Below are positions 5,566 through 63,395 of a DNA stretch of 64,000 nucleotides, piece after piece. Numbering within the stretch: the first letter of the stretch is position 1; every line of letters begins with the position of its first letter. Location: assembly GCA_037045245.1 (NCBI GenBank), contig JBAOHR010000011.1, positions 64,302 through 128,301 of the forward strand, read 5' to 3'. Below the pieces are notes generated by a model. The model worked only from the letters and a program-made list of their open reading frames with translations, was not told the DNA's origin and ran no database searches. The translations under genes were made by a program, and so were the position numbers. Source of the stretch: Gemmatimonadales bacterium (lineage in GTDB: Bacteria > Gemmatimonadota > Gemmatimonadetes > Gemmatimonadales > GWC2-71-9).

Positions 5566-7737
5566 TCACTCCATCCTGGTGCGCTTCAGCACGGCGCGCA
5601 CGCGCGCGACCAGCGATCGCGGCTGCACCGGCTTGGTCAGGTAGTCCTGGGCGCCCAACTCGAGCGCCTGTGATTCAGTGTCGTCGGTCCGCGCCGTGAG
5701 CATGATCACGGGCAGGGCCGCCGTCGCGACGGAGGCGCGCAGTTCCTCGAGCACGCCGAGGCCCGTCAGGCGCGGCATGTCGTGATCGAGGAGGATCAGG
5801 TCGATGCCCTTGGTCTCGACCGCCGTGAGCGTGTCGAGGCCGTCCGCCGCCTCGATCACCACGAAGCCTTCGCGCTCCAGCACCGTGCGGACCAGGCGTC
5901 GCATCTGGGCGTCGTCGTCGGCGAGGAGGATCGTCGCGCCCTTGCCCTCGGCGTCGGCCGTGCCGGCCCCCGCCCAGCCTGCCGGCGTCGCCACTGGGGC
6001 GGCCGCAATCGGCGCGGCGGCGTGCTCGGCGCGCGCGGCACGCTCCTGGGTCTCGCCGAGCACGCGGTGGATTTCGTCGTAGGTGGTCTGGCCGCTCCAG
6101 TAGCGGATCAGTCCGCTCTCCCACAACGTGCGCATGCCGTGCGGCCGTGAGGCGTCGAGGATCGCCTGCTGTGGAGCTCCCGCCTCGATGAGGCCGCCCA
6201 CGGCGCCCTCCACCGGAAGCAGCTCCATGACTGCGAGCCGCCCCTTGAAGCCGGTGCCACCGCAGCTCTTGCACCCGGCACCGCGCTTCGGCGCATAGAC
6301 GCCGGCGTAGCCCGCGGGGGGACGCGCCTGCTCGGGAACCTCGTCGAGCGGCAGGTCGACGGCGCACTGCGGACAGACACGGCGGACCAGGCGCTGCGCC
6401 ACCACGCCGCGCAGCACGGTGCCGAGCTTGAACGAGTCGATCCCCATGTCGCGGAGGCGGACCAGCGCGGAGACGGCGTCGTTGGTGTGCAGCGTCGAGA
6501 AGACGAAGTGGCCGGTGAGGCCGGCCTGGATCGCGATCGTCGCAGTTTCACCATCGCGGATTTCGCCGACCAGCACGATGTCCGGGTCCTGGCGGAGCAC
6601 CGAACGCAGCGCGGTCGCGAAGGTGAAGCCCTGCGCGTCGTTCACCTGCATCTGCGAGATCCCGTCGACGTCGTATTCGACCGGGTCCTCGACGGTCACG
6701 ATGTTGACCTTGCCCGTCTTCAGGTGATTCAGGATGGCGTACAGCGTGGTGGTCTTGCCTGAACCGGTCGGGCCGGTCACCAGCAGCATCCCCTCGCGGT
6801 GCGAGAGCATCCGCATCAACACCGCCTCTTCCTCCGGGGGGAGGGCCAGCGCGGGGATCGACGCGCGGAGATTCGACTTGTTCAGGATCCGGATGACGAG
6901 CTTCTCGCCGCGGCGGGCGACGGGGGCGGTGGCGACGCGCATGTCGACGAACTGGCCGCCGACCTTGAGCGAACTGCGCCCGTCCTGGGGCGTCATCGAG
7001 TTCGTGACGTCGAGCCCGGCGATGATCTTCACGCGACGGACGAGCGAGGCCCCCGCCGCCTCCGGGAGGCGCATCACCTCGCGGAGGATGCCGTCGACGC
7101 GATAGCGCACCACGACGGCCCCGCCCTCGATCTCGGAATGGATGTCGCTGGCACCGGCCTGCACCGCGTCGGAGATCATCGCATCGACGAGCTTCGTCAT
7201 CGGCGCGTCGAGGGCGGGATCGCGTTCCTCGGGCGAGTCGCTGATCTGCACCTCGACCGACGTCGGCGTCAGCCCCTGCAGCAGCCGGTTGATCGAATTC
7301 TCGGGACGGTAGAACTCGTCGAGCTTGTCGCTGATCGCCGATGGCGACGCCACCTCGAGCTTCACGTCGCGCCCGGTGAGGAAGCCGAGGTCCTGCTCGG
7401 CCGCGAAGTCGCGCGGGTCGCAGGTCGCGATGCGGACGGTCTTTTCGTCCAGCGCGAGGGCGACCACGTGATACTTCCGGGCCGCGGTCTCCGGGAGCAC
7501 CGCGACGGCGCGCGGTTCGGCCGCGCCGACATCGGCCACCGGCAACCGGAAGCGGCGCGCCAGTTCCGCGCAGATGGCAGCGTCGGTCGCCAGCCCCGTC
7601 TCGACCACCGATCGCCACAGGCGCCGGTCCTTGATCGAGGCGAGCACCGGGAGGCGCTCAGCGGGAAGCAGACCGGCCTCGACCAGATAGGGGCCGATCC
7701 AGGCATCCGGGGCTGCGCCGACGTCGGGTGCGGTCAT
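5566..7737 (-). CDS. GspE/PilB-family secretion/pilus assembly ATPase fused to a C-terminal response-regulator receiver domain
   Basis: N-terminal T2SSE_N-like domain, Walker A GPTGSGKTTTLYA, VGEIRD, and the tetracysteine CPQC...CKSCGG typical of GspE/PilB. After an Ala/Pro linker comes ILLADDDAQMRRL...LILLDHDMPRLTG...MLTAR...DYLTKP, a complete REC domain. Confidence 0.9.
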   Translation of the reverse strand: MTAPDVGAAPDAWIGPYLVEAGLLPAERLPVLASIKDRRLWRSVVETGLATDAAICAELARRFRLPVADVGAAEPRAVAVLPETAARKYHVVALALDEKTVRIATCDPRDFAAEQDLGFLTGRDVKLEVASPSAISDKLDEFYRPENSINRLLQGLTPTSVEVQISDSPEERDPALDAPMTKLVDAMISDAVQAGASDIHSEIEGGAVVVRYRVDGILREVMRLPEAAGASLVRRVKIIAGLDVTNSMTPQDGRSSLKVGGQFVDMRVATAPVARRGEKLVIRILNKSNLRASIPALALPPEEEAVLMRMLSHREGMLLVTGPTGSGKTTTLYAILNHLKTGKVNIVTVEDPVEYDVDGISQMQVNDAQGFTFATALRSVLRQDPDIVLVGEIRDGETATIAIQAGLTGHFVFSTLHTNDAVSALVRLRDMGIDSFKLGTVLRGVVAQRLVRRVCPQCAVDLPLDEVPEQARPPAGYAGVYAPKRGAGCKSCGGTGFKGRLAVMELLPVEGAVGGLIEAGAPQQAILDASRPHGMRTLWESGLIRYWSGQTTYDEIHRVLGETQERAARAEHAAAPIAAAPVATPAGWAGAGTADAEGKGATILLADDDAQMRRLVRTVLEREGFVVIEAADGLDTLTAVETKGIDLILLDHDMPRLTGLGVLEELRASVATAALPVIMLTARTDDTESQALELGAQDYLTKPVQPRSLVARVRAVLKRTRME

Positions 7738-7897
7738 GAGGGTCCGTCGTGGTGTGTGAGGCGGGGGGATCGTCGGCTACGTTGTTCCGGGATCCCGAGA
7801 AAGATACGATTCTCGGTGGTCAAGGTGAAACCCTTCTTGCGACGCGGAGTGCCTTCTGCCAGTCGGTCATCGCTTCCACGTCTCGGGAACGCATCGC

Positions 7898-9139
7898 GTG
7901 CCGGGCGACAAAAGCATCACCCACCGCGCCCTGATGTTCGCGGCCCTCGCCCCAGGCCACTCGGTGGTGGGCGGGGCGCTGACGTCGCTGGACGCTCGGT
8001 CGACGGCCCGCGTCCTTCGCGCCCTCGGGGCGACGATTTCCCCGCTTCGCGCCGACTCGGTGGTCGAGATCCGCGGCCGTCGGCGCCTGACCACCCCCGC
8101 CACTGTCCTGCAATGTGGCAATTCCGGGACCACGGCTCGACTGATGCTGGGCATCCTGGCGGGGCACCGCTTCCCGAGCACCCTCTCCGGCGATGCCTCG
8201 TTACGGCGGCGGCCGATGCGTCGGGTGACGGCCGCCCTTGCCGAGATGGGGGCCAAGATCGACGACGGGGGCCACGACGGGCTGCCGCTCACGATCCGTG
8301 GCGGGCGGTTGGGTGCCCTGAAGTGGAACCTCCCGATCGCCTCGGCCCAGGTGAAGAGCGCGCTGCTGCTGGCCGGCGCCGTCGGCGGCGTGTCGGTCGC
8401 ACTGCGCGAAACCGCCGTCACCCGGGATCACACCGAGCGGATGCTTGGTGCGAACGGGTTCGACGTATCACGAAGCGATGGCTGGCTGCGTCTCGAGCCG
8501 ACCGGGGCCTTCCACCCCGTCGCGATGCAGGTGCCCGGGGACCCGTCCTCGGCCGCCTTCCTCCTCGCCGCCATTCTGTTGGCGGAAGGCGGCGAGGCCC
8601 GGGTGGCCGGCGTCGGGCTCAATCCCACGCGAACCGGCTATCTCCACGTGATGGCGCGCATGGGCGCCACGATCGCCGCCTGTGACGAGGAGGCACCCTT
8701 CGGCGAGCCGATCGGCGACCTGGTGAGCTCGCCCGCGCCCCTGCGGGGCGTGGTGGTCGAGCCAGACGAGGTCCCCGGGATCATTGACGAGATCCCGATG
8801 CTCGCCTGCCTCGCGGCACGGGCGGCGGGAGAGTCCCGATTCCGTGGCGTCGGCGAGTTGCGCGTCAAGGAGAGCGACCGCCTCGCCCTCATCGTCCGCA
8901 ACCTGCGCGCGGTGGGTGCCGAAGCGGAGGCCGTGGGGGATGACCTGCTCGTGCGCGGCGGTCCGGGGCCCTTCCGCGGCCGCGTGGTGACGGACGGCGA
9001 TCACCGGATCGCGATGGCGTTCACGGTGCTCGGGCAGACCCGCGGCTCGCGCATCGTGGTTGACGATCCCGACTGTGCCGCGGTCTCCTTTCCGAACTTC
9101 ACCGGGCAGCTCGCCGCGCTCTACGGGCGGGCTGGGTGA
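7898..9139 (+). CDS. aroA: 3-phosphoshikimate 1-carboxyvinyltransferase (EPSP synthase); 5' end uncertain
   Basis: (V)PGDKSITHRALMFAAL... is the EPSPS signature and runs full length through the C-terminus. The first canonical start is GTG 7898, right at the PGDKS motif, but EPSPS-like sequence (FHVSGTHRV) continues in frame upstream without an ATG/GTG/TTG. Confidence 0.85.
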   Translation: MPGDKSITHRALMFAALAPGHSVVGGALTSLDARSTARVLRALGATISPLRADSVVEIRGRRRLTTPATVLQCGNSGTTARLMLGILAGHRFPSTLSGDASLRRRPMRRVTAALAEMGAKIDDGGHDGLPLTIRGGRLGALKWNLPIASAQVKSALLLAGAVGGVSVALRETAVTRDHTERMLGANGFDVSRSDGWLRLEPTGAFHPVAMQVPGDPSSAAFLLAAILLAEGGEARVAGVGLNPTRTGYLHVMARMGATIAACDEEAPFGEPIGDLVSSPAPLRGVVVEPDEVPGIIDEIPMLACLAARAAGESRFRGVGELRVKESDRLALIVRNLRAVGAEAEAVGDDLLVRGGPGPFRGRVVTDGDHRIAMAFTVLGQTRGSRIVVDDPDCAAVSFPNFTGQLAALYGRAG

Positions 9140-35472: not shown

Positions 35473-36753
35473 ATGCTCGAGCCACTCGTCATTCCAGCAT
35501 CCGACGGTCTCCAGGCAGCACTGCGCCTGGGGATCGCCGGATTGATCGGCTTGGGGGCGGGGATCGAGCGTGAATGGTCCGGACATGCGACCGGTCCGGC
35601 GGCCCGCTTCGCGGGGCTGCGCACCTTCCTGATCCTCGGGCTCTGCGGCGGCGTGGCGGGGCTCCTCTCCGCCGGCGACCTGCCGCTGGTCGGGGCGGTG
35701 CTGCTCGCAGGGGGCGTCGGCCTCGTCATCGCGGCGTATGTCCTCACCATGCGGCGGCCTGCGGCCGAGGCCGACGGCACCACCGAGGCGGCGGCCTTGG
35801 TGATCCTCGCGCTCGGCCTGCTCGCCGGCATCGGGCAGCTCGCGCTCGCGTCGGGCGCCGGGGCGCTGGTCGTCCTCGCGCTCGGCGAGAAGCGGCGGTT
35901 GCACGGCATGGTCGCCAAGGTCGGCGAGCCGGAGCTGCAGGCCGCCGCGCGCTTTGCCGTGATGGCGCTGGTGATCCTGCCGATCCTTCCTACCACGCCG
36001 CTGCCGTTCGGCGGCGAGATCTCCGCCCGTGGCCTCTGGACGCTGGTGCTGCTCTTCTCGGGGATCAACTTCATCGGCTACCTCGCCCGGCGCGCGGTCG
36101 GTCCCGAGCGCGGCTACGGCCTTGCCGGCCTGCTCGGCGGGCTGATCTCCTCGACGCTGGTCACGATGCAGTTTGCGCGGCGCAGTCGCGCGGAGGCGCA
36201 TCATGCCGGAGCCCTCTCGCTCGGGGTGATCGCCGCCTGCACGGTGCTGCCGCTGCGGCTGCTGGTGATTCTCGGGGTCCTGGCGCCGACGGTGGGACAG
36301 GCCGCGCTGCCGTTTCTTCTGCCACCGGCCCTGGCCGGCATCGTGATCCTCGCGGCGGCGTATCGGCGCACGGGGAGCGGTGCCGGGGGCAAGGCGGAGG
36401 ACGACAAGTCACCGCTGCACGTGCTGGCGTCGGCGCGGATGGCGGTGCTCTTCTGGCTCGCCCTGATCGGGATCGAGTACCTCGAACAGCGGTGGGGGAG
36501 CACCGGCGTCTACACCTCGGCCGTGCTGCTCGGCCTGACGGACATGGACGCCCTGACGGTGGCCATGGCCAGGCTGGCGGCGGGGCCCGCGACCGCCCTG
36601 GTGGCCGCCAAGGGTGTCGCGATCGGGGTGATCTCGAACACCGTCTTCAAGGCGGGGCTCGGGGTGACGCTGGGGAGTCCGGCGTTCCGGACTCGGCTGG
36701 TGCTGGGGCTGCTGGCGTTGGGGGCGGCGGTGGGGGTGGGGTGGCTGGTGTAG
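35473..36753 (+). CDS. MgtC/SapB-family N-terminal domain fused to a DUF4010-like polytopic membrane domain
   Basis: LRLGIAGLIGLGAGIEREWSGH resembles the MgtC N-terminus, followed by about 10 further TM helices. Family assignment is from memory of this architecture. Confidence 0.65.
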   Translation: MLEPLVIPASDGLQAALRLGIAGLIGLGAGIEREWSGHATGPAARFAGLRTFLILGLCGGVAGLLSAGDLPLVGAVLLAGGVGLVIAAYVLTMRRPAAEADGTTEAAALVILALGLLAGIGQLALASGAGALVVLALGEKRRLHGMVAKVGEPELQAAARFAVMALVILPILPTTPLPFGGEISARGLWTLVLLFSGINFIGYLARRAVGPERGYGLAGLLGGLISSTLVTMQFARRSRAEAHHAGALSLGVIAACTVLPLRLLVILGVLAPTVGQAALPFLLPPALAGIVILAAAYRRTGSGAGGKAEDDKSPLHVLASARMAVLFWLALIGIEYLEQRWGSTGVYTSAVLLGLTDMDALTVAMARLAAGPATALVAAKGVAIGVISNTVFKAGLGVTLGSPAFRTRLVLGLLALGAAVGVGWLV

Positions 36754-36860
36754 CGAGAAGCGAGAAGCGAGAAGCGTGTCCGTGTTGCGACATGGAACGT
36801 ACTACAAGCCGGAATCCACCCTACACCACGCTTCTCGCTTCTCGCTTCGCGCTTCTCGCT
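36752..36860. repeat. Heptad-array palindrome 1: (AGCGAGA)x3.5, 48-nt spacer, (TCTCGCT)x4
   Basis: Left arm 36752..36778 and right arm 36827..36853 are complementary over 27 bp with one mismatch, and the right arm carries one extra heptad. The left arm starts inside the TAG stop of the upstream gene. Confidence 0.9.
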
Positions 36861-36867
36861 CCTCCCC

Positions 36868-36897
36868 TTGCCACCGCCCCCCCTCCGGCCCTATAAT
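36868..36897 (+). promoter_or_regulatory. Possible sigma-70-type promoter of rpsO
   Basis: TTGCCA, 18 nt, TATAAT, 60 nt upstream of the rpsO ATG. Confidence 0.45.
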
Positions 36898-36956: not shown

Positions 36957-37214
36957 ATGATTGAAAAGCAGCCCGTCATCGAGCAGCACCGTCAGCATGA
37001 GAGCGACACCGGATCCGCGAAGGTCCAGGTGGCCCTGCTCACGGCGCGCATCAACGGCCTCACCGAGCATTTCCGCACCCACAAGAAGGACCATCATGGT
37101 CGTCGTGGGCTGCTGAAGATGGTCGGGACACGGCGCCGCCTCCTCAACTACATGAAGAGCCGGGACCTGTCGTCGTACCGTTCCCTGATCGCTGAACTCG
37201 GACTCCGGAACTGA
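36957..37214 (+). CDS. rpsO: 30S ribosomal protein S15
   Basis: ..[52 protein letters not shown]...YRSLI..LGLR is canonical S15. Confidence 0.95.
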
Positions 37215-37235
37215 CCGGGGAATGATGCTGCATGG

Positions 37236-37267
37236 GCGTCCCACGTGAGCACCGTGGGACGCTTTTT
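37236..37267 (+). terminator. Intrinsic terminator/attenuator hairpin between rpsO and pnp, with U-tract
   Basis: GCGTCCCACG-TGAGCAC-CGTGGGACGC followed by TTTTT. Confidence 0.7.
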
Positions 37268-37296: not shown

Positions 37297-39389
37297 ATGA
37301 AAGTGCATCGCATTGAAACGCAGTTCGCGGGTCGCCCGCTGGTCATCGAGACCGGCCGCCTCGCCAAGCAGGCCGCCGGGTCGGTCCTCGTGCAGTACGG
37401 CGAGACCACCGTGCTGGCCGCCGTGACGGTCTCGCCGAACGTCACCCACCTCCCGTTCTTCCCGCTGACCGTCGAGTACAAGGAGAAGACCTACGCCGCG
37501 GGCAAGATCCCGGGTGGGTTCCTCAAGCGCGAAGGTCGCCCGTCGGACGACGAGATCCTGAATTGCCGGATCATCGACCGCTCGATCCGCCCGCTCTTCC
37601 CGGAAGGCTTCCGTCACGAGGTGCAGGTCTTTGTGACCGTGCTGTCGACGGACCAGGAGAACGAGTCGGACGTGATCGGCGTGCTGGCCGCCTCGGCCGC
37701 GCTGGCGATCTCGGAGATCCCCTGGAACGGCCCGATCGCCGCGGCGCGCGTCGGCAAGGTCGAGAACAACTGGATCCTGAACCCGACCTTCCAGCAGCTC
37801 GAGTTCTCCTCGATGGACCTGGTCGTCGCGGGCCTCAAGGACTCGATCATGATGGTCGAGGGCGGCGCGCTCGAGGTCTCCGAGGCGGAAGTCCTCGACG
37901 GTCTCAAGGTCGCGCAGCTCGGCATCGTCGAGCAGGTCAAGCTGATCACCGACCTCGTCAAGAAGGTCGGCAAGCCGAAGATGGCGTGGGTCGCCCCCGA
38001 GAAGGACGCGGAGCTGGTCAAGGCCGTGAAGGGCGCCGCCGAGAAGGCGATGGCGAAGGCGATGAACGCGAAGGACAAGGCCGGGCGCGCCGCCGGCGTC
38101 TCGACCGTCCGCAAGGAGGCGCAGGCCGCCCTCGCGGAGCTGTTCCCCGAGCGCGTCAAGGACATCGCCAACGAACTCGAGGAGATCGAGTACCACGCGA
38201 TGCGGGCGCAGATCCTCGACAAGGGCGAGCGCATCGACGGTCGCGACCTCGAGACGATCCGCCCGATCACGCCGGAAGTCGGCGTCGTCCCGCGCGTGCA
38301 CGGCACCGCCGTCTTCACCCGCGGCGAGACGCAGGCGTTCGTCGCCGTCACCCTCGGCACCGCCGATGACGAGCAGCGCATCGACTCGATCGAGGTCCCG
38401 GGCGAGTCGAAGAAGTCGTTCATGCTCCACTACAACTTCCCGCCGTACTCGACCGGTGAAGTCCGTCCGCTCCGCGGCACGTCGCGCCGTGAGATCGGCC
38501 ACGGCGCCCTGGCCGAGCGGGCGATCCATCCGCTCCTCCCGGCGACCGCCGACTTCCCGTACACGATCCGCATCGTCTCCGAGATCCTCGAGTCGAACGG
38601 CTCGTCGTCGATGGCGACGGTCTGCGGCAGCTCGCTCGCGCTCATGGATGCCGGCGTGCCGATCAAGGCCGCCGGTGCGCCGGCGTCGCGATGGGGCTGA
38701 TCAAGGAAGGCGAAGAAGGTCGCGGTCCTGACCGGACATCCTGGGCGACCGAGGATCACCTCGGCGACATGGACTTCAAGGTCGCGGGCACCGAGGCCGG
38801 CATCACGTCGATCCAGATGGACATCAAGATCGAGGGCCTCTCGCTCGAGATCATGACGACCGCGCTGGAGCAGGCCCGCAAGGGTCGCCTGCACATCCTC
38901 GGCGAGATGAACAAGGTCATCACGACGCACCGGGACGAGATGTCGCCGTGGGCGCCGCGGATCTTCACGATCCAGATCCGCCCCGACAAGATCGGCGACG
39001 TGATCGGCCCCAAGGGCAAGACGATCCGCGGCATCCAGGACGCCTCGGGCGCCAAGGTCAACATCGACGACACCGGCCTCATCACCATCGCCGCCGTCGG
39101 CGCCGAGGCGGGCGACAAGGCGCGCGAGATGGTCATGGCCATCACCGCGGAGCCGGAAGTCGGCAAGATCTACGAGGGCCCGGTCAAGAGCACGACCGCC
39201 TTCGGGGCGTTCATCGAGATCATGCCGGGCGTCGAGGGGCTGCTGCACATTTCCGAGCTCGACCACAAGCGGGTCGAGAAGACCGAGGACGTCGTCAAGA
39301 AGGGCGACATCGTCCAGGTCAAGCTGCTGGAAGTGGATGAGCGCGGCCGCATGAAGCTGTCGCGGAAGGCCCTCCTCCCGAAGGAGTGA
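37297..39389 (+). pseudogene. pnp: Polyribonucleotide nucleotidyltransferase (PNPase), reading frame broken by a cluster of single-base insertions near 38.67-38.75 kb (true pseudogene or sequence error)
   Basis: ORF 37297..38700 encodes both RNase PH domains and ends ..[24 protein letters not shown]-stop. ORF 38691..39389 continues with ..[29 protein letters not shown].., KH and S1 domains. Together they make a normal PNPase of about 700 aa. Confidence 0.9.
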
Positions 39390-42237: not shown

Positions 42238-42244
42238 CCCTGCC

Positions 42245-42293
42245 GTGACCAGTGACCAGTGACCCGTGACCCGTGACGGGTGAACGGTGAACG
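42245..42293. repeat. Heptad array 2: GTGACCA x2, GTGACCC x2, GTGACGG, GTGAACG x2
   Basis: Seven perfectly phased 7-nt units start 8 nt after the dut stop. The centre contains the 13-nt palindrome ACCCGT-G-ACGGGT (42269..42281). Confidence 0.9.
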
Positions 42294-42311
42294 GTCGAGG
42301 AGCGCCCGCTG

Positions 42312-44905: not shown

Positions 44906-44925
44906 CGCTGGCCCCCATCGACCGA

Positions 44926-44961
44926 ACGGCGCACCGCGGAATTCTCTCCACGGTGCGCCGT
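44926..44961. terminator. Hairpin between convergent genes
   Basis: 11-bp perfect stem ACGGCGCACCG / CGGTGCGCCGT with a 14-nt loop. Confidence 0.45.
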
Positions 44962-44970
44962 CCGCCTTCT

Positions 44971-45005
44971 CCGACCTCCGACCTACGACCTACGACCTAT
45001 GACCC
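44971..45005. repeat. Heptad array 3: CCGACCT x2, ACGACCT x2, ATGACCC
   Basis: Five phased 7-nt units. The unit ACGACCT/TACGACC is the same as in the right arm of the element at 63366..63395. I found no inverted partner arm nearby. Confidence 0.85.
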
Positions 45006-45033: not shown

Positions 45034-48000
45034 TCACGGCACATCATTCCAATTGATGATCGCATTGAACACCATCCCGAATTCGCCGTGGTTCTGCCAC
45101 CGGTAGATCGGGTTGTTGGCGAACAGGATCACGCGTCCCTTGCCGTTGTTGGCGCCGGGGATATCCACCGCGAACGGCCGTCCCTTGAGCGCATCGGCGC
45201 CGGTCATCAACCCTGACAGCACGGCCGCATCGCCGCCGACATAGCGGCCCAGGACGTTGCCCTGGTCGGCGACGCCGACGCGGAGGGCCGGACCGCCGAC
45301 GTACTTGAGCGGCAGCTTCGTCCCCTCGTAGCCATAGAAGACCGGGTGGAGCGGCTTGACGATCTCGCCCTCGACCAGCGGACGCTGGGCGGTGAGGCCG
45401 GTGAGCGGCTCGGTGTCGACCGTGTGCGCCCAGCCGAAGTCGATCGGCAGCCGCATCGCATCGCCCGTGGCGATCAGCGTGCCGCCCTTCGCGAGGAAAT
45501 CCGCAAAGGCATCGACGCCGGCCTGTCCCATCCCGCCCGTCATGTCATCGGTTTCGCCATACATCCCGAGGAACTGGAACTTCTCGCTCTTCTTGTACGG
45601 GATCGGCGTGGCGCCCTTGGCCTGCATCACCGTGGTCTTGCTCAGGTTCTGCTGGGCGACGAGGATCACGTCGTACTGTTCCTTCAGCTTCCCCTTCATG
45701 ACCCGTTCCTTGTAGATCAGGTCGTACGGGATGCCGAAGTTGTCGAACGTCAGCCGATACCAGCCGAGCTCCTGGGTGCCGTTCCACTGGGAGTAGATCG
45801 CCACGCGCGGCAGGTCGGCCGCGTGGGTCGCAATCGGTGGCAGCTGATTCAGCGCCTTGGCGGTGAGGCCGAACTTCTCGACGGCCGCACGCACCCGAGC
45901 CGCCGCCTTCGCGTCGGTCACCAGGAAGGTGCCGGCCGGGAACTCGACGCTGTCGACGATGAACGTCCGCTCGGTCACCTGCATGGCCACGTCGCGGAGC
46001 GCGTAGCGGAAGGCGATCATGTTGTTGGAACCGTAGTGCGCAACGGCGATGCCGGCCTTCCCCTCGCCGACGGTGCGACCACCGATGCCGTCGGTGGTCA
46101 CGGGCGTCGTCGCGGCCTTCAGGATGGTCGAGTCGGCGATCTCGCGGACCGCCACATTGAACGCCCACCCCATCGACCAGCCGCTGTCGTCGTAGGTGGT
46201 CAGCCGCGCGTCGGGGAACTGCTGCTTCTCGAGCAGGTTCTTTGCGAGCCGGCCGTACGGCTGGTCGAGCTTGATCACGTACGAGCCCGCGGCGTAGGTC
46301 GAGTCGCCCACCTTGATGGGGGCGGTCGCCACGCCGACCTCGATCCGCTGCACGCGAAGGATGCGGACCATCTCCGCCGCGCGCGTCATGTCGCGCTGCT
46401 TCGGGAGGACGTAGGCGTAGGGTGCGCGGCTCTTGCCGGCGTCCATGCCGTTGCGCGTCTTGATGTAGAAGTTCTCGACCACCGTGCCCGGAAACATCGC
46501 CGTCAGCTGCAACGCGGACAGCACGCCGGTCTGCATGTAGTTGGTGTTGGCGCGCCGGGAGAACGAGGCGACGTCGTCGAAGCCCACCGGAATGCCGCGA
46601 TACCACTCACGGTCCTGCGCACCGCCCCGGCCGGTCGGCACGCCGCCGCCAATCGGTGCACCGCCACCGCCTGCCGCGCCACGACCCCCACCAGGCGCCT
46701 GCGCCGCCCCCGGCGCTGGGGCCGGAGTCTGCGTCGCGGCACCCGGCGCCCCGGTGGGCGCTGCGCCGCGCCCTCCCGCGGGCGGCGTGGTCGCACCAGC
46801 TGCCGGCGGCGTGACCGCACCTCCTGCCGGCGGGGTGACTGCACCTCCTGCAGGTGGCGTGACCGCACCGCCAGCCGGTGGCGTCACCGGCGCTGCCGCA
46901 CCCGCTCCGCCACGGCCACCGCCCGGGGCAGGGGCGGCACCACCCGCCGCCGCTGGCGCGTTGCCCGCTCCGCGCCCACCGCGCCCGGTGCCGGCCGCTG
47001 CGGCGGTGGTGTCGAGGTCACGCCCCGACTGCGTCTCGTACATCTTCATCAGGCCGTTGTGGTTGTAGGCGATCGAGCCGAGGTACCCTGGCGACCAGCC
47101 GTCCATGAAGGCGTAGGTGTAGACGCCCGGCATCCCCCACTTGGTCATCTGCGCCATTTCGTAGTTGGCGAACCAGGGAAGCTCGGCGAAGAGCAGCGGG
47201 TCGAGATTGGGATTCTGGGGCGCCGCGCCGCTGTAGGTGTACATCAGCGTGAGCGATTCGTGCAGGTCGTGCATGATCGGCGGATGCGCCGTGAAGTACC
47301 AGTCGGCGATCGCGCGCATCTGCACCAGCGAGAGATTGATGTCGCGGTTGTTGTCGTGGAAGGCGTACTTCCCCCAGTAGGGGACCGACCCGCCGCCGCG
47401 GCCACCCCCGGCCGGTGCCGCGGGCGCACCCGGTGCGGCGTTCGCCGCGGCCGCCGCGGCGGCGCGCTGGACATCGAGCCCGCGATAGAACCAGTCGACG
47501 TTCCGGTCTCGGCCGTCGGCATCAGCGGCAGGCGTCACCGACACGTACACGTTGTTGCGGATCTGCTCGATCACCGGCGACGTCTCGGTCGCGAGGCGAT
47601 AGACGAGCTCCATCAGCATTTCGGACGGCCCGGTTTCGCCGCTGTGCAGCCCGCCCATCAGGTGATAGTGCGGCTTGGTCGAGGCGATCAACTCACGGAT
47701 CTCGGCGTCGCTCCGGCCGCGCGGGTCGGCGATCTTCGCCAGCTGGTCGCGGTTCTGCTGCAGCTTCGCCATGTTCGCGTCCGACGACACCCACACCACC
47801 ACCAGCTCGCGTCCCTCGTCGGAGCGCCCGATCGTCTCGACGCGCACCCGCGGCGTTGCCGCGGCGAGGGCGCGGTAGTACTTCAGCTGATCGGCGTAGT
47901 AGGTGAGCGTGCGCGGCGCGCCGACGTGATGCCCGATGATGTCCGCAGGGGAGGGGATCCCCTTCACGATCGGCAGGTGATCTACCAGCGGGGAGCCGAA

Positions 48001-56279: not shown

Positions 56280-57518
56280 ATGTCGTATCAGGCGGCGCTC
56301 GACTTCCTCTATCCGCGCACCACCCAGATCAAGTTCGGGCTCGACACGACGCGCGCGCTGCTCGACGCGCTCGGCAATCCGCAGGGACAGTTCGCGACCG
56401 TCCACGTGGCCGGGACCAACGGCAAGGGCAGCACCGCCTCCCTGATCGCGGAAGCGCTCGGCGCGGCGGGCTTCCGGGTCGGGCTCTACACCTCGCCGCA
56501 CCTGGTCTCGTTCCGCGAACGGATTCGCGTCGACGGGACGCCGATCAGCGAGGAGGCCGTCGCGGCGTGGACCGACCTGCTGCACCCGACGATCCTCTCC
56601 TCGGGGGCGACCTTCTTCGAGGCCACGACCGCGATCGCGTTCGCGGATTTCGCGGCGCGCGGCGTCGAGATCGCGGTGGTCGAGGTGGGGCTGGGCGGCC
56701 GGCTCGACAGCACCAATGTGCTGACCCCCGTGGTGAGCGTGGTCACCCACATTGCGCTCGACCACCAGCGCTATCTCGGCGACACGCTCGAGGCGATTGC
56801 CGCGGAGAAGGCCGGGATCGCCAAGCCGGGGGTGCCATTCATCGTGGGCGATCCCGATCCGGCGATTGTCGCAATGCTGCTCGAGGCGGGCACCGCCGCC
56901 GTGCAGCGCGCCGATCCCACCGCGGACCTGCAGGCAGTCGTGGTGCCATCAGCGGCGCGCTACGACGGTCCCCTCGGCCTCCTCGGTCCGCATCAGCGGC
57001 GCAACGCGGCGGTGGCCGAGGCGGCGCTCGCCGCGCTTCCCCCGGCCTTTGCCGTCCCGCCGGCGGCACGCGCCGAGGCGTTCGCGCGGAGCCGGGTCCC
57101 GGGCCGGCTCGATCGCCGGGGGCGTTGGCTCTTCGACGTGGCGCACAACCCCGACGGGATGCGCTCGCTGACGGCGGCCATGGCCGAGCTCCGGCTCCCG
57201 GGGCCGGTCCATGGCCTGGTCTCGATCCTCGGCGACAAGGCCTGGCCCGCCATGCTGGTCGAGCTCGATCGCGCGCTGGATGTCGGTATCCTGACCGTCG
57301 CGCCGAGCGCGGACACCCGCCGGTGGGACCTTGGCTGGCTGGAGCGCTGGCTGGCCGACCCGGAGCGCCCGGCGGCGCGGGCGCGCTGGCGCCTGATCCC
57401 GGACTTTCGCGAGGCGCTCCGCACGGCGGAGCAGGGCGCGGGGACGATCGTCGTCACGGGGTCTTTCCACACGGTCGGAGACGTGATGGAGGCGCGGGGG
57501 GTGGAAGTCCTGGGGTGA
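56280..57518 (+). CDS. folC: Bifunctional folylpolyglutamate synthase / dihydrofolate synthase
   Basis: MSYQAALDFLY......KFGLD....LL..LGNPQ.....VHVAGTNGKGST......AL...G..VGLYTSPHLV.F.ERI. ATG 56280 is preferred because the accD hairpin lies upstream; ATG 56259 is the alternative. Confidence 0.85.
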   Translation: MSYQAALDFLYPRTTQIKFGLDTTRALLDALGNPQGQFATVHVAGTNGKGSTASLIAEALGAAGFRVGLYTSPHLVSFRERIRVDGTPISEEAVAAWTDLLHPTILSSGATFFEATTAIAFADFAARGVEIAVVEVGLGGRLDSTNVLTPVVSVVTHIALDHQRYLGDTLEAIAAEKAGIAKPGVPFIVGDPDPAIVAMLLEAGTAAVQRADPTADLQAVVVPSAARYDGPLGLLGPHQRRNAAVAEAALAALPPAFAVPPAARAEAFARSRVPGRLDRRGRWLFDVAHNPDGMRSLTAAMAELRLPGPVHGLVSILGDKAWPAMLVELDRALDVGILTVAPSADTRRWDLGWLERWLADPERPAARARWRLIPDFREALRTAEQGAGTIVVTGSFHTVGDVMEARGVEVLG

Positions 57519-57613
57519 ACGGCGAACAGCGGGTGAGACGTCAAACGTGAAACGGAAGGGGGTCAGGGCTCCCGTTTCACCTTTCACGTCTCACGGCCCC
57601 GGTTCCGTTCACC
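57514..57613. repeat. Heptad-derived palindrome 4: 100-nt imperfect hairpin built from GTGAACG/GTGAGAC/GTGAAAC units and their complements
   Basis: Three perfect 9-bp helices: GGTGAACGG/CCGTTCACC (57514-22 with 57605-13), GTGAGACGT/ACGTCTCAC (57533-41 with 57586-94), GTGAAACGG/CCGTTTCAC (57547-55 with 57572-80). The folC stop TGA lies inside the first unit. Confidence 0.85.
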
Positions 57614-57641
57614 GACGCCCCCCTCCCGACTATTTTGCGCC

Positions 57642-60399: not shown

Positions 60400-61682
60400 G
60401 CACCCATCTCGTCGCCGCGGGGATCGTCCGCACCGAGGAAGGGACGCTGGCCATGGCCGGCGTCCCGCTCCCGGTGATCGCGGAGCAGCACGGGACGCCC
60501 ACCTACTGCTATGACGCGGCGACGATCCGGTCGCAGTATCGGCGGCTCGACGCCGCCTTCGGCAGCCTGCCGCACCGCATCTGCTACGCCGTGAAGGCCA
60601 ACTCCAACCTCGCCATCCTGACGCTGCTCGCGCGCCTCGGCGCCGGCGCCGACATCGTCTCCGGCGGCGAGATGCTGCGCGCGCTCGCGGCCGGTTTCGC
60701 GCCCGAGGACATCGTCTTCAGCGGCGTGGGGAAAACCGACGACGAGTTGCTGGCCGCGATCGCAGCCGGCATCGGGCACGTGAACGTCGAATCGCTCGCG
60801 GAGTTGCGCCGGCTCGCGATGTTCGCCGACCTGCGCGGCGCCACGGTGACCGTCGGGATCCGCGTGAACCCCGACGTCACCGTGGACACGCACCCCTACA
60901 TCTCGACGGGGAAGGGCGGTCTCAAGTTCGGCATTCCGGTGGACCAGCTGCCCGAGGCGCTCGAGGTCATCGATGCCTCGACCGGCCTCCGGCTCAACGC
61001 GCTGGCGATGCACCTCGGCTCGCAGTTGCTCGCGACCGCACCGTACGAGGCGGGCGTCACCCGCCTGCTCGAGCTGCTCGCGCAGGTGCGCGCCGCCGGG
61101 CATTCCCCGGAGGTGCTCGACATCGGCGGGGGCCTCGGCATTCTCTATCGCGACGAGGAGCCGCTCGATCCGGCCGAGTGGATGACGGTGCTCGGACCGG
61201 CGCTGGCGAGCAGCGGCTGCTCGATCCACGTCGAGCCGGGCCGCTACCTGGTCGGCAGTTCGGGTGTCCTGCTCACGCGGGCAATCTACCGGAAGCACTC
61301 GGGCGGCCGCGAGATCCTCGTCGTCGACGCCGCCATGAACGACCTCATGCGGCCCGCGCTGTACAAGGCGTGGCACGAGATCGTCCCGGTGGACACCATT
61401 CCGGGCGAGTTGCTGCCCACGGACATCGTGGGGCCGATCTGCGAGAGCGGCGACTTCCTCGCGCTTGAGCGCCCGCTCGCGCCGGTGGCCGGCGGGCAGC
61501 TCCTCGCCGTGCTCGGCGCCGGCGCCTACGGCTTCAGCATGAGCTCCAACTACAACACCCGCGCACGCGCCGCGGAGGTGCTGGTGGACGACGGCCGATG
61601 GGCCGTGATCCGCCCGCGCGAGCGCCTGACCGACCTCTTCCGTGACGAGATCGCCGACCCCTTCGCTGACGAGTCCCCGTGA
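60396..61682 (+). CDS. lysA: Diaminopimelate decarboxylase
   Basis: ..GTPTYCYD...IR..Y..L..AF......[26 protein letters not shown]; ..GGGLGI.Y; ..GP.CESGD. TTG 60396 overlaps the proS stop, so the start is uncertain. Confidence 0.9.
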
Positions 61683-63234
61683 GTCATCCTGACGGCATCC
61701 TGATCATCGATTTCGGCTCCCAGTACACGCAGCTGATCGCCCGGCGCATTCGCGAGCAGCGCGTCTACTGCGAGATCCATCCCCCCTCACGCAGCGTGGA
61801 GTGGATCCGCGAGTGGAAGCCGAAGGGGATCATCTTCTCCGGCGGGCCGAACTCGGTGTACGGCGAGGGCGTGCCGACGGCCGACCCGGAACTGCTCGAT
61901 CTGGGCATTCCGGTGCTTGGCGTCTGCTACGGACTCCACCTCCTGGTGCACCTCACCGGCGGCAGCGTGGTGCGGGCGTCGCGTCGCGAATACGGCCGGG
62001 CCGATGTCTCGGTCCTCGGCGGTGACATCTTCGCCGGCTTCCTGCCGGGGGCGACGACGCCGGTCTGGATGAGCCACGGCGACCACGTCGATGCCGCGCC
62101 CCCGGGATGGCGCATCACGGCGTCGAGCGAGAATTCGCCGGTCGCCGCGATCCAGCACGTGTCGAAGCCGCTTCACGCGGTGCAGTTCCACCTCGAGGTC
62201 GCGCACACCCCGCGCGGCGGCGAGATGCTCAGCAACTTCCTCTTCGGCGTCTGCGGGTGCACGCCGGACTGGACCTCCGAGCACTTCGTCGAGACCGAGG
62301 TCGCGCGGATCCGCGAGCTGGTGGGACCCGAGACGCGGGTGATCTGCGGACTCTCGGGTGGCGTCGACTCCTCGGTCGCGGCCGCGCTTGTGCATCGGGC
62401 GATCGGCGATCGGCTCACCTGCATCTTCGTCGATCACGGGATGCTGCGACTCAACGAGCGGGAGCAGGTCGAGCGCACCTTCCGCAGCCACCTCGGCATC
62501 GACCTCCGGACCATCGACGCGACCGAGCTCTTTCTCGGTGACCTCGCCGGCATCACCGATCCGGAGACGAAGCGGAAGCGGATCGGCCATCGCTTCATCG
62601 ACGTCTTCGAGCAGGCGGCAAAAGAAGTCGACGGCAATGTCGGCTTCCTGGTGCAGGGGACGCTCTATCCTGACGTGATCGAGTCGTTCTCGCCGACCGG
62701 CGGGCCGTCGGTCACGATCAAGACGCACCACAATGTCGGCGGCCTCCCCGAACGGCTGCCGTTCAAGTTGATCGAGCCGCTGCGCGAATTGTTCAAGGAT
62801 GAAGTCCGCCAGGTCGGGCCGCGAGCTCGGCCTGCCCGAGGAGATGGTCGGTCGGCATCCGTTCCCCGGGCCCGGCCTCGCGATCCGCATCCTCGGCGAG
62901 ATCACTCGCCCGCAGCTCGACCTGCTGCGGCTCGCGGACGCGATCTACATCGAGGAGATTCGCGCCGCCGGCTTGTACGACCAGATCTGGCAGGCGTTCG
63001 CGGTGCTGCTGCCCGATCCGCTCCGTCGGCGTGACCGGCGACGAGCGCAGTTACGATCAGGTGATCGGGCTCCGGGCGGTGACCTCACGCGACGGGATGA
63101 CGGCGGATTGGTTCCCGTTCCCCCCCGACGTCCTCGGGCAGATCAGCAGCCGGATCTCGAACGAGGTGGCAGGCGTCGGCCGCGTCGTGTACGACATCAG
63201 CAGCAAGCCGCCGGCGACGATTGAGTGGGAGTAG
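61679..63234 (+). pseudogene. guaA: GMP synthase (glutamine-hydrolysing), frame broken twice by single-base insertions (true pseudogene or sequence error)
   Basis: Three successive ORFs (61679.., 62799.., 63031..63234) together give a colinear GuaA: [20 protein letters not shown].., [10 protein letters not shown].., ..KDEVRQVG / [27 protein letters not shown].. / ..[29 protein letters not shown]....[15 protein letters not shown]. Confidence 0.9.
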
Positions 63235-63238
63235 GGGA

Positions 63239-63395
63239 GAGGTCGTAGGTCGTAGGTCGTAGGTCGTATGTACCTGTCATCCCGAGCAACGCGAGGGATC
63301 TGCGTGGAGGCCATCACGCAGATCCCTCGTTTCATTCAGGATGACACCGCCGATGCCGCGGGACCTACGACCTACGACGTACGACCTACGACCTC
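63239..63395. repeat. Heptad-array palindrome 5 (composite): GA(GGTCGTA)x4, 97-nt core with a nested hairpin, (TACGACC)x4 TC
   Basis: The arms 63239..63268 and 63366..63395 are complementary over 30 bp with one mismatch. The core holds a perfect 15-bp hairpin CGAGGGATCTGCGTG / CACGCAGATCCCTCG (63292-306 with 63315-329), enclosed by TGTCATCC / GGATGACA (63275-82 with 63339-46). Confidence 0.9.

Follow-up and report, generated by a model that had tools for sequence, protein, structure and literature searches.

What are the short tandem repeats that begin in the stop codon of an MgtC/DUF4010-family gene and end just ahead of rpsO in the Gemmatimonadales bacterium of assembly GCA_037045245.1? The question concerns a 64-kb stretch of contig JBAOHR010000011.1 (the window), in which the junction of these two genes (locus 1) carries an array of 7-nt units facing its reverse complement across a spacer. 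An earlier inspection of the bare letters (the sequence-only reading) had reported five intergenic heptad loci of shared construction with locus-specific units, three of them inverted pairs, and all of these were recovered in the sequence and by Tandem Repeats Finder (Table 1). The explanation that we favor, and to which we give about an even chance of being correct, is that the elements are slippage-driven hairpins of heptad simple sequence repeats (SSRs) tolerated in the spacers behind stop codons.

The TAG stop of the MgtC/DUF4010 open reading frame (ORF) occupies 36751–36753 and overlaps the first heptad of locus 1; since the 5′ array starts at 36752, it begins within the stop codon. Locus 1 consists of gtgTAGCGAGAAGCGAGAAGCGAGAAGCG, a 52-nt spacer and CGCTTCTCGCTTCTCGCTTCGCGCTTCTCGCTCCTCC, in this order. 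An inverted array starting in the TAG and a reverse-complementary right arm were as the sequence-only reading had described them, but the spacer is not 48 nt long and the right arm consists of five units, two of them variant, reaching 36864 rather than of four units ending at 36860. The 3′ arm is the reverse complement of the 5′ arm, and the two pair in the minimum-free-energy fold, which has −60.2 kcal/mol (z = −7.05) on the plus strand and −65.6 kcal/mol (z = −6.7) on the minus strand. The spacer was matched by blastn at the orthologous site only. Behind the 3′ arm the sequence continues as CCTCCCCTTGCC and lacks a T-tract. The predicted rpsO promoter is represented by a promoter-like site, although it starts 3 nt after the end of the arm (or 7 nt after 36860) and not 8 nt. 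Both of its hexamers are unchanged in all near-identical assemblies, and the second one reads TATATT in the divergent L006 and L009 (L numbers designate the compared loci).

The other four loci follow the same construction to different degrees. Locus 2 occupies the 74-nt spacer between the dUTPase and Asp/Glu racemase genes; its adjacent units are more similar to each other than units lying far apart, and its plus-strand fold is weak (−28.9 kcal/mol, z = −2.3). The locus 3 array remains unpaired in the fold, adjoins an ordinary hairpin at 44925–44962 and reads TAGGTCG in the sense of the minus-strand M14-peptidase gene. Locus 4 starts within the TGA stop of a gene of the Mur-ligase family, and 28 nt separate its end from hisS. 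Its arms (GGTGAAC..GTGAGAC GTCAAAC GTGAAAC and GTTTCAC CTTTCAC GTCTCAC..GTTCACC) mirror each other's unit variants and fold to −55.4 kcal/mol (z = −2.8) on the plus strand and −66.1 kcal/mol (z = −5.7) on the minus strand. Locus 5 starts 5 nt past the guaA stop, whose TAG is in phase with the heptads, and its 3′ arm includes the stop (63386–63388) and the final codons of a minus-strand gene for PTS EIIA; the whole element folds to −116.1 kcal/mol on the plus strand (z = −12.85). A scan for a leaderless promoter within the right arm of locus 4 detected none. Similar C-rich stretches (cgccccccctcc) lie at 36874–36892 and 57614–57632, after the 3′ arms of loci 1 and 4, where they precede TATAAT and TATTTT, respectively; the scan scores only the locus-1 site as promoter-like.

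The number of arrays was compared with chance by one fixed detector that accepts arrays of at least 3 units, with 100 dinucleotide-preserving shuffles of the window as the null. The window contains 7 period-7 arrays while the shuffles gave a mean of 0.29 and a maximum of 2, which is an excess over chance within this stretch. With the same detector, no array of at least 3 units with a period of 8–12 was found in the 64 kb. By the relatives of its PNPase the window falls into Gemmatimonadales, the best match being a metagenome-assembled genome with 97% identity. A sample of 1.15 Mb around pnp from 80 species contained 40, 81, 52, 15, 7, 2, 1 and 5 arrays of at least 3 units for periods 5, 6, 7, 8, 9, 10, 11 and 12, respectively. 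Relative to the window shuffle rates scaled up to 1.15 Mb, period 5 is near chance, period 7 is clearly in excess and periods 8 and 9 are less so; the period-6 arrays are taken to be mostly coding repeats. Forty-seven of the 52 period-7 arrays are located in L011–L050 (PNPase identity of at least 65%) and the other five in three more distant loci (L058, L071 and L088), and the remaining Gemmatimonadaceae and Gemmatimonas loci of this sample have no period-7 arrays. The arrays are common in the closest relatives and nearly absent from Gemmatimonadaceae. Their density is 0.44–0.51 per kb in intergenic DNA, whether tandem, convergent or divergent, versus 0.011 per kb in coding DNA. A depletion in divergent intergenic regions was considered and rejected because the density is equal there, though from only three arrays.

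Unit length is not strictly 7. Octamer arrays (e.g. GGGAGCTA and GGGGCAGN) form similar G-first hairpins at L033 8753, L043 7670, L028 9450 and L041 6352, and the element at L043 650–760 has 8-nt units in its 5′ arm and 7-nt units in its 3′ arm.

Loci 1, 2 and 5 are each present in 10 independent assemblies and are thus not assembly artefacts. Among the assemblies of the same species, their length differences consist of whole heptads only. The left arm of locus 1 has 3.6, 4.6 or 5.6 units depending on the assembly (alignment A1), locus 2 has an additional GTGACCA unit in one assembly and a unit-type switch in another (alignment A2), and the guaA-side arm of locus 5 (63240–63268) has one ACGACCT unit fewer in 3 of the 10 assemblies (alignment A3). 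Whole-heptad length variants appear to be the behavior of replication slippage. The comparison of orthologous regions that the sequence-only reading had called for thus revealed copy-number variation at these three loci, in agreement with its suggestion of slippage-prone sites.

Between species, the arrays turn over quickly. Locus 3 of the closest species (L011) counts 2.5 units versus 5 and is joined by a new (CTAACGA)x3 array, and locus 2 is represented there by (GGTGAAC)x4 in a different spacer. Depending on the species, the heptad upstream of rpsO is AGCGAGA, CATCCAC, GAGAGGA, GAGATCG, CTCCGTT, GCGAGGG or CCTCCGN, and elsewhere there are other palindromes or nothing. In L006 and L009, both arms of locus 1 are altered, from GCGAGAA/TTCTCGC to GCGAACA/GTTCGCN, and the fold still has −46.3 kcal/mol. 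A stable structure (z < −3) upstream of rpsO was present in only 24% of the closest clade, and the idea that a hairpin is a constant requirement upstream of the rpsO promoter was rejected on this ground. REP-like palindromic units (GAGCCGCGGCC...GGCCGCGGTTTGGTCCGCC) were observed approximately 100–250 nt upstream of rpsO in L023, L026 and L027, where they take the position that heptad hairpins have in other species.

The heptad element makes up practically the entire spacer and can be dispensed with. Only 20 nt separate the stop of the mgtC-like gene from the rpsO −35 element in L016, and L046 has approximately 100 unstructured nucleotides at this junction. The junction between the rseP-like and mgtC-like genes is 18 nt long in the window versus a 147-nt heptad hairpin in L046, which (8120–8270) begins at the stop codon and leaves 7 nt in front of the start codon. 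Similarly, ald and dut overlap in the window and are separated by a 112-nt heptad spacer in L036 (14474–14592). With the flanking stop and start, the L036 spacer folds to −61 kcal/mol, and the TAG of ald pairs with the CUA preceding the ATG of dut. This UAG:CUA pairing would place stop and start next to each other in the folded RNA, so that the modeled fold may preserve translational coupling. Judging from the related species that do without it, the locus-1 hairpin appears to be dispensable and not a dedicated conserved regulatory element. L046 also contains, on the minus strand at 6968–8243, long spurious ORFs across (GTGAAAC)n with FHVSRFT-type peptide repeats; they match the translated repeats that the sequence-only reading had described as spurious hypothetical proteins of soil-bacterial genomes.

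Twenty inverted elements from the window and its relatives were folded to describe their placement. The element starts −13 to +8 nt from the upstream stop in 15 of the 20 and within 25 nt of it in 16, in line with the placement at gene 3′ ends and over stop codons noted before. The 5′ arm is the purine- and G-rich one in 17 of 19 distinct pairs (p ~7e-4 by automated scoring). Likewise, among arrays lying −15 to +40 nt from a stop, G exceeds C in the gene sense in 23 versus 5. As an independent sample, a scan of metagenomes for (AGGTCGT)x3 returned at least 120 stretches. Where an inverted partner is present, the purine-rich array comes first in 15 cases and the pyrimidine-rich array in none. 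Of 49 metagenome contigs with a GC fraction of at least 0.6, 24 have a credible gene whose end lies at the array in the sense TAGGTCG, and 4 have one in the opposite sense. Half of these TAGGTCG-sense genes (12 of 24) use the TAG of the array itself as their stop, with offsets of 2, 9, 16 or 23.

Several possible reasons for this arrangement were tried and discarded. Selection at the RNA level should be visible as an asymmetry in G·U pairing, but sense and antisense fold energies are alike and the antisense fold is often the better one. Hence nothing points to G·U pairs being tolerated on the transcribed strand in particular, as would follow from pairing kept at the DNA level. A general G-first polarity of ordinary hairpins could not serve as an explanation either: the ratio was 20:14 in the closest clade, in a set contaminated by repeat stems, and the ratio of 26:3 in Gemmatimonadaceae is unusable because many of these hairpins are orthologous rpsO terminators. 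Shine-Dalgarno mimicry by the purine arms was not significant (GGAG, GAGG or AGGA in about 12 of 23 catalogued units, counted by hand, versus an expected fraction of roughly 0.37 by our own composition-based estimate). Three-frame stops as a selected property gave only a weak, non-significant trend, with a stop triplet on the purine strand of 22 of 53 units versus 16.4 expected.

Contrary to the impression of the sequence-only reading that no described repeat class has this architecture, such pairs are known from Xanthomonas and Geobacter metallireducens. For two Xanthomonas species, Rehm et al. reported 186 and 183 arrays of the heptamer GGGAATC, with 70 and 75 cases of convergent inverted pairs, respectively (Rehm et al., 2015; PMC4692102). 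These arrays usually have about 4 copies and are 89–93% intergenic, with a mean distance of 28 nt to the upstream ORF versus 160 nt to the next one; they occupy matching intergenic sites in both species with varying length and sequence, and no function was found (PMC4692102). The window resembles them in its tandem heptads, in convergent pairs capable of forming stem-loops near an ORF 3′ end, as is the case at loci 1, 4 and 5, and in the G-rich strand on the coding side. However, Xanthomonas has one dominant G-tract unit, for which quadruplexes were shown in vitro, whereas the window has many unrelated, mostly non-quadruplex units per genome, a tighter abutment or overlap with stop codons and a host from a different phylum. 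Assignment to the Xanthomonas unit GGGANTN with at least four G-tracts was rejected, as the window units are AGCGAGA, GTGACCN, ACGACCT and GTGAAAC and locus 1 has no GG. In Geobacter metallireducens, class 2 elements (TCTCCGTS x3, 21 pairs) and class 3 elements (MTYCTGA x5, 8 pairs) lie on opposite strands at variable distance, and there are 49 GGACCGG x4 elements; the authors guessed that the pairs are sites of a global regulator of the IHF/HU type (Aklujkar et al., 2009; PMC2700814). They are like the window elements in being paired short-unit arrays on opposite strands of intergenic DNA (e.g. proB–proA). The Geobacter sites are lineage-specific and absent from the sister species, and their polarity, stop position and polymorphism were not analysed in the genome paper. 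The window units differ from both consensus sequences, which excludes membership, and TCTCCGT-like units (CTCCGTT/CCTCCGT) are found in its relatives L018, L024 and L025 and not in the window itself.

Heptamers are also cited as the most over-represented long SSRs in bacteria (Mrazek and co-workers, 2007, as cited in PMC4692102 and PMC4679880). Long SSRs, as these two papers describe them, have 5–11-nt units, are enriched in the non-coding DNA of particular lineages and are proposed to arise by polymerase slippage. Locus 1 and the four further loci have head-to-tail units of this length in at least three near-perfect copies, exceed chance, lie in non-coding DNA and, at loci 1, 2 and 5, differ in unit number among strains. 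The dominance of period 7 in the relatives matches the published heptamer-dominated pattern, with counts that fall from period 7 through 8 and 9 to 10. That survey is statistical and, as cited, is without inverted pairing, stop abutment and purine-first polarity. The short tandemly repeated repetitive (STRR) sequences of cyanobacteria (Calothrix and Nostoc) are likewise intergenic tandem heptamers with several unit families per genome. The Calothrix units are CCCCAGT, TTGGTCA and CAACAGT, and they occur in heterocystous cyanobacteria. Jackman and Mulligan in 1995 and Elhai et al. in 2008 are said to have described nif intergenic regions that vary yet are structured, and small hairpin elements sitting within heptamer arrays. 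Unlike the window elements, STRR sequences have different units and low-GC genomes, and an assignment to them was rejected on account of the Gemmatimonadales host and the unrelated units. Rehm et al. also cite the Calothrix heptanucleotides (PMC4692102). In Beggiatoaceae, the TAACTGA arrays, unlike those described here, are direct repeats just upstream of start codons with one inverted case; a stop triplet within a tandem heptad shuts every one of the three frames, and ORFs therefore end inside the array, and CspB binds heptamer repeats (MacGregor et al., 2015; PMC4679880). The architecture is thus already described in Xanthomonas, Geobacter and cyanobacteria, with no function assigned there.

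Other identities did not fit. The units are 7 nt long and contiguous and the second array is inverted, which differs from CRISPR with their 23–50-nt repeats and unique spacers of similar length. Repetitive extragenic palindromes, bacterial interspersed mosaic elements and REPIN (REP/BIME/REPIN), in which a single conserved imperfect palindrome of 20–40 nt has many copies, were rejected because blastn found nothing beyond heptads in common among the loci in the 64 kb of this genome. This blastn search of spacers and whole elements against all compared loci, which also bore on miniature inverted-repeat transposable elements (MITEs), returned orthologues only. The exclusion of CRISPR and REP/BIME by the sequence-only reading is upheld, and the compared sequence showed no MITE with a conserved core. 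In Rfam, whose search had also been suggested, only tRNA-Leu passes the gathering threshold and no family matched the array loci; with a permissive E-value, locus 1 gave only sub-threshold matches resembling miRNA precursors, i.e. generic long hairpins.

How could slippage produce such elements? In a compact genome, replication slippage in the short spacers behind stop codons would both create hypermutable long-SSR arrays and alter their length, until they fill nearly the entire spacer, while selection would purge them from coding DNA. A complementary second array could then arise downstream of the first, and not upstream, as upstream is coding sequence. The G/purine-rich array and its complement would form a long repeat stem in the transcript or in single-stranded DNA, and strand switching templated by the hairpin, or else selection for pairing, might keep the arms complementary. 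Rho prefers C-rich, G-poor, unpaired RNA. From this preference we infer that selection would act against an exposed, unstructured C-rich array in the transcript, on which Rho could load; with the G-rich array first in the gene sense, a C-rich array would occur only where it is immediately paired. Alternatively, the polarity could mimic the A-then-U order of terminators, with the 3′ arm providing the weaker RNA:DNA hybrid. At locus 1, the predicted stem-loop plausibly reduces read-through and shields the upstream mRNA at its 3′ end.

Some observations weigh against this explanation. A given heptad can turn up at loci of one genome that are not orthologous: ACGACCT is found both at 44.97 and at 63.3 kb, GGTGAAC both at 42.28 and at 57.5 kb, and GAGATCG three times in L017. 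Plain slippage does not predict such recurrence. Selection for a functional RNA stem could explain equally well why both arms changed jointly in L006 and L009 and why locus 4 has mirrored variants, and the strict purine-first polarity together with the stop abutment shows that more than neutral slippage is at work. Each genome contributes a small sample, 64 kb here and no more than 21 kb elsewhere, and the gene calls in the relatives are crude, being based on GC at third codon positions. Identical heptads also recur across very different metagenomes: (AGGTCGT)n is found in metagenome loci L101–L220 on contigs with a GC fraction of 0.33–0.74 and with up to 20 units, although some of the low-GC contigs may be eukaryotic microsatellites.

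A possible, though doubtful, alternative to slippage-driven repeats is that the hairpins are dedicated U-tract-independent terminators or insulators, perhaps also blocks to 3′-exonucleases or RNase III sites. The repeat stem would be selected for folding in more than one register, and its pyrimidine-rich 3′ arm would make a weak RNA:DNA hybrid through which the hairpin could zip without a U-tract. The hairpins are indeed very stable and begin at the stop codon, locus 1 stands directly before a promoter-like site and locus 5 between convergent genes, and ordinary GC-rich hairpins without a T-tract hold the same position after other genes. The purine-then-pyrimidine polarity parallels the A-tract and U-tract of bidirectional terminators, and the joint change of both arms in L006 and L009 would fit a functional stem. 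Apart from this polarity and a stable stem-loop after the gene, however, heptad hairpins are unlike intrinsic terminators: they have no U-tract, far larger loops (20–90 nt) and repeat stems of 25–35 bp, and some are operon-internal. Locus 1 was rejected as an intrinsic terminator for its loop of 52 nt instead of 3–8 nt and for the missing U-tract; the terminator scan finds no heptad hairpin but does find the ordinary hairpin after rpsO, which indicates that this genome does use canonical terminators, and no T-tract follows any 3′ arm. The hairpins of L036 and L046 end 0–7 nt from the next start and leave no room for a promoter, so that they cannot all be strong terminators. Moreover, related species lack the hairpin at the same junctions, where other relatives have only 18–20 nt and stable structure before rpsO is limited to the minority of the closest clade given above, and most arrays are single and unpaired. 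The general terminator or insulator role put forward by the sequence-only reading is weakened by these cases. A broader proposal, that heptad and octad hairpins are a widespread distinct class of 3′-end RNA in high-GC soil bacteria whose polarity and abutment are functionally required, is rather unlikely in our estimation; its versions could be register-tolerant U-tract-independent termination, or Rho exclusion or translational coupling through a folded insert. If it were true, slippage in unit number would be a heritable tuning of read-through.

Protein-binding arrays, in which one heptamer would be contacted per domain by a nucleoid or "global regulator" protein on DNA or by a cold-shock-type protein on RNA, seem improbable. 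Strict periodicity and the limited heptad repertoire of a genome, reused at unrelated loci, would suit binding, and there are precedents in the IHF/HU-type binding proposed for the paired Geobacter sites (PMC2700814) and in the binding of CspB to heptamers (PMC4679880). However, the units differ wholly from locus to locus and, at one and the same site, from one close species to another, which no single sequence-specific binder would fit; 8-nt units are used in the same architecture, even within one element, unit number varies freely among strains, and no candidate protein was found. Quite improbable, too, are miniature mobile elements with heptad-array terminal inverted repeats, or palindromes that insert into heptad hairpins. 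The idea draws on locus 5, whose core also lies between AGGTCGT/ACGACCT arms, as (AGGTCGT)n, the GTCATCCCGAGC..GAGGGATCTGCGTG palindrome and (ACGACCT)n, beside different genes in the unrelated metagenome contigs L113, L126 and L174, of which L113 and L126 derive from one metagenome. A related palindrome core is present between GGACGGN/GTCCGTC arms in L112, and the nested palindrome GTCATCC...GAGGGATC recurs between heptad arms. Junctions that are tiny or overlapping in one species also carry a full element in another. The nested core resembles a repeat widespread in soil bacteria; a strict pattern for the inner palindrome matched once in the window and not at all in the first 90 loci, and a looser search matched metagenome contigs. 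Against mobility, no second copy of the spacer of locus 1, 4 or 5 was present in the 1.9 Mb compared, even though the locus-5 composite recurs in metagenome contigs, and the spacers of the 15 AGGTCGT hairpins from metagenomes, 5–156 nt long, are mostly unrelated. No target-site duplications or transposase are evident, and length variants gain or lose internal units and not the element as a whole. G-quadruplex or i-motif repeats, as proposed for the Xanthomonas and Nostoc heptamers, would agree with G-run units such as GCGAGGG and GGGCGGA in some relatives and with a G-rich strand on the coding side as in Xanthomonas, but they are hardly credible here: AGCGAGA and GACGATA have no GG and in GAGATCG the only GG is 2 nt long and falls where two units meet, and with a unit such as AGCGAGA quadruplex formation cannot be the common property.

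The window has further features that are independent of the arrays. A 24-nt tandem repeat (x4.9, 80% matches) at 46772–46889 inside a large minus-strand gene with a Peptidase_M14 domain is probably a coding repeat of 8 residues. In the window, pnp (37297–39389) is split into two ORFs with a break near 38690, and guaA (61679–63234) is broken near 63031 into a GATase/NAD-synthase part and a GMP_synt_C part. Other assemblies of this species carry unbroken versions of both genes (695 aa and 517 aa, respectively), which points to indel errors or recent frameshifts in the window.

Table 1 Positions of the heptad loci and neighboring features in the window.
Feature	Position	Strand	Basis
MgtC/DUF4010-family gene	35473..36753	+	ORF listing; PF02308 and PF13194 match the identical gene in L001–L006
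Locus 1, 5′ arm (AGCGAGA)x3.6, purine-rich	36752..36776	+	Tandem Repeats Finder, 100% matches
Locus 1, spacer/loop, 52 nt, unique sequence with a small inner stem	36777..36828	+	Sequence, fold
Locus 1, 3′ arm (CGCTTCT)x5.1, pyrimidine-rich, two variant units	36829..36864	+	Tandem Repeats Finder, 89% matches
Promoter-like TTGCCA-18-TATAAT upstream of rpsO	36868..36897	+	Scan, 11/12 matches
rpsO (ribosomal protein S15)	36957..37214	+	ORF listing; PF00312
Ordinary hairpin and T-tract after rpsO, terminator-like	37234..37264	+	Terminator scan
Locus 2, direct array (GTGACCN)x5 then (GGTGAAC)x2, no true inverted partner	42243..42295	+	Tandem Repeats Finder
Locus 3, direct array (CCGACCT/ACGACCT)x5, between convergent genes	44969..45004	+	Tandem Repeats Finder
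Locus 4, degenerate segmented inverted pair	57514..57613	+	Sequence, fold
Locus 5, 5′ arm (AGGTCGT)x4.1	63240..63268	+	Tandem Repeats Finder
Locus 5, loop palindrome GTCATCCCGAGC..GAGGGATCTGCGTG..CACGCAGATCCCTC..GGATGAC, nested	63276..63345	+	Sequence, fold
Locus 5, 3′ arm (GACCTAC)x4.7	63362..63394	+	Tandem Repeats Finder

As far as we found, the phylum, the many non-quadruplex units per genome, whole-unit slippage at the strain level and the coordinated change of arms are new here, as are the near-absolute purine-first polarity, the stop abutment and the use of octamers in the same manner. The elements thereby add a new phylum to the long-reported heptamers of cyanobacteria (STRR), Xanthomonas and Geobacter. 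They offer three regularities that can be tested, namely whole-unit change among strains, occupancy from the stop codon onward and a G-rich arm that nearly always comes first. For the genomes that carry them, the arrays yield spurious ORFs of repeat peptides, can supply or shift the stops of real genes and, in metagenome-assembled genomes from soil, are likely to be places where errors of assembly and annotation cluster.

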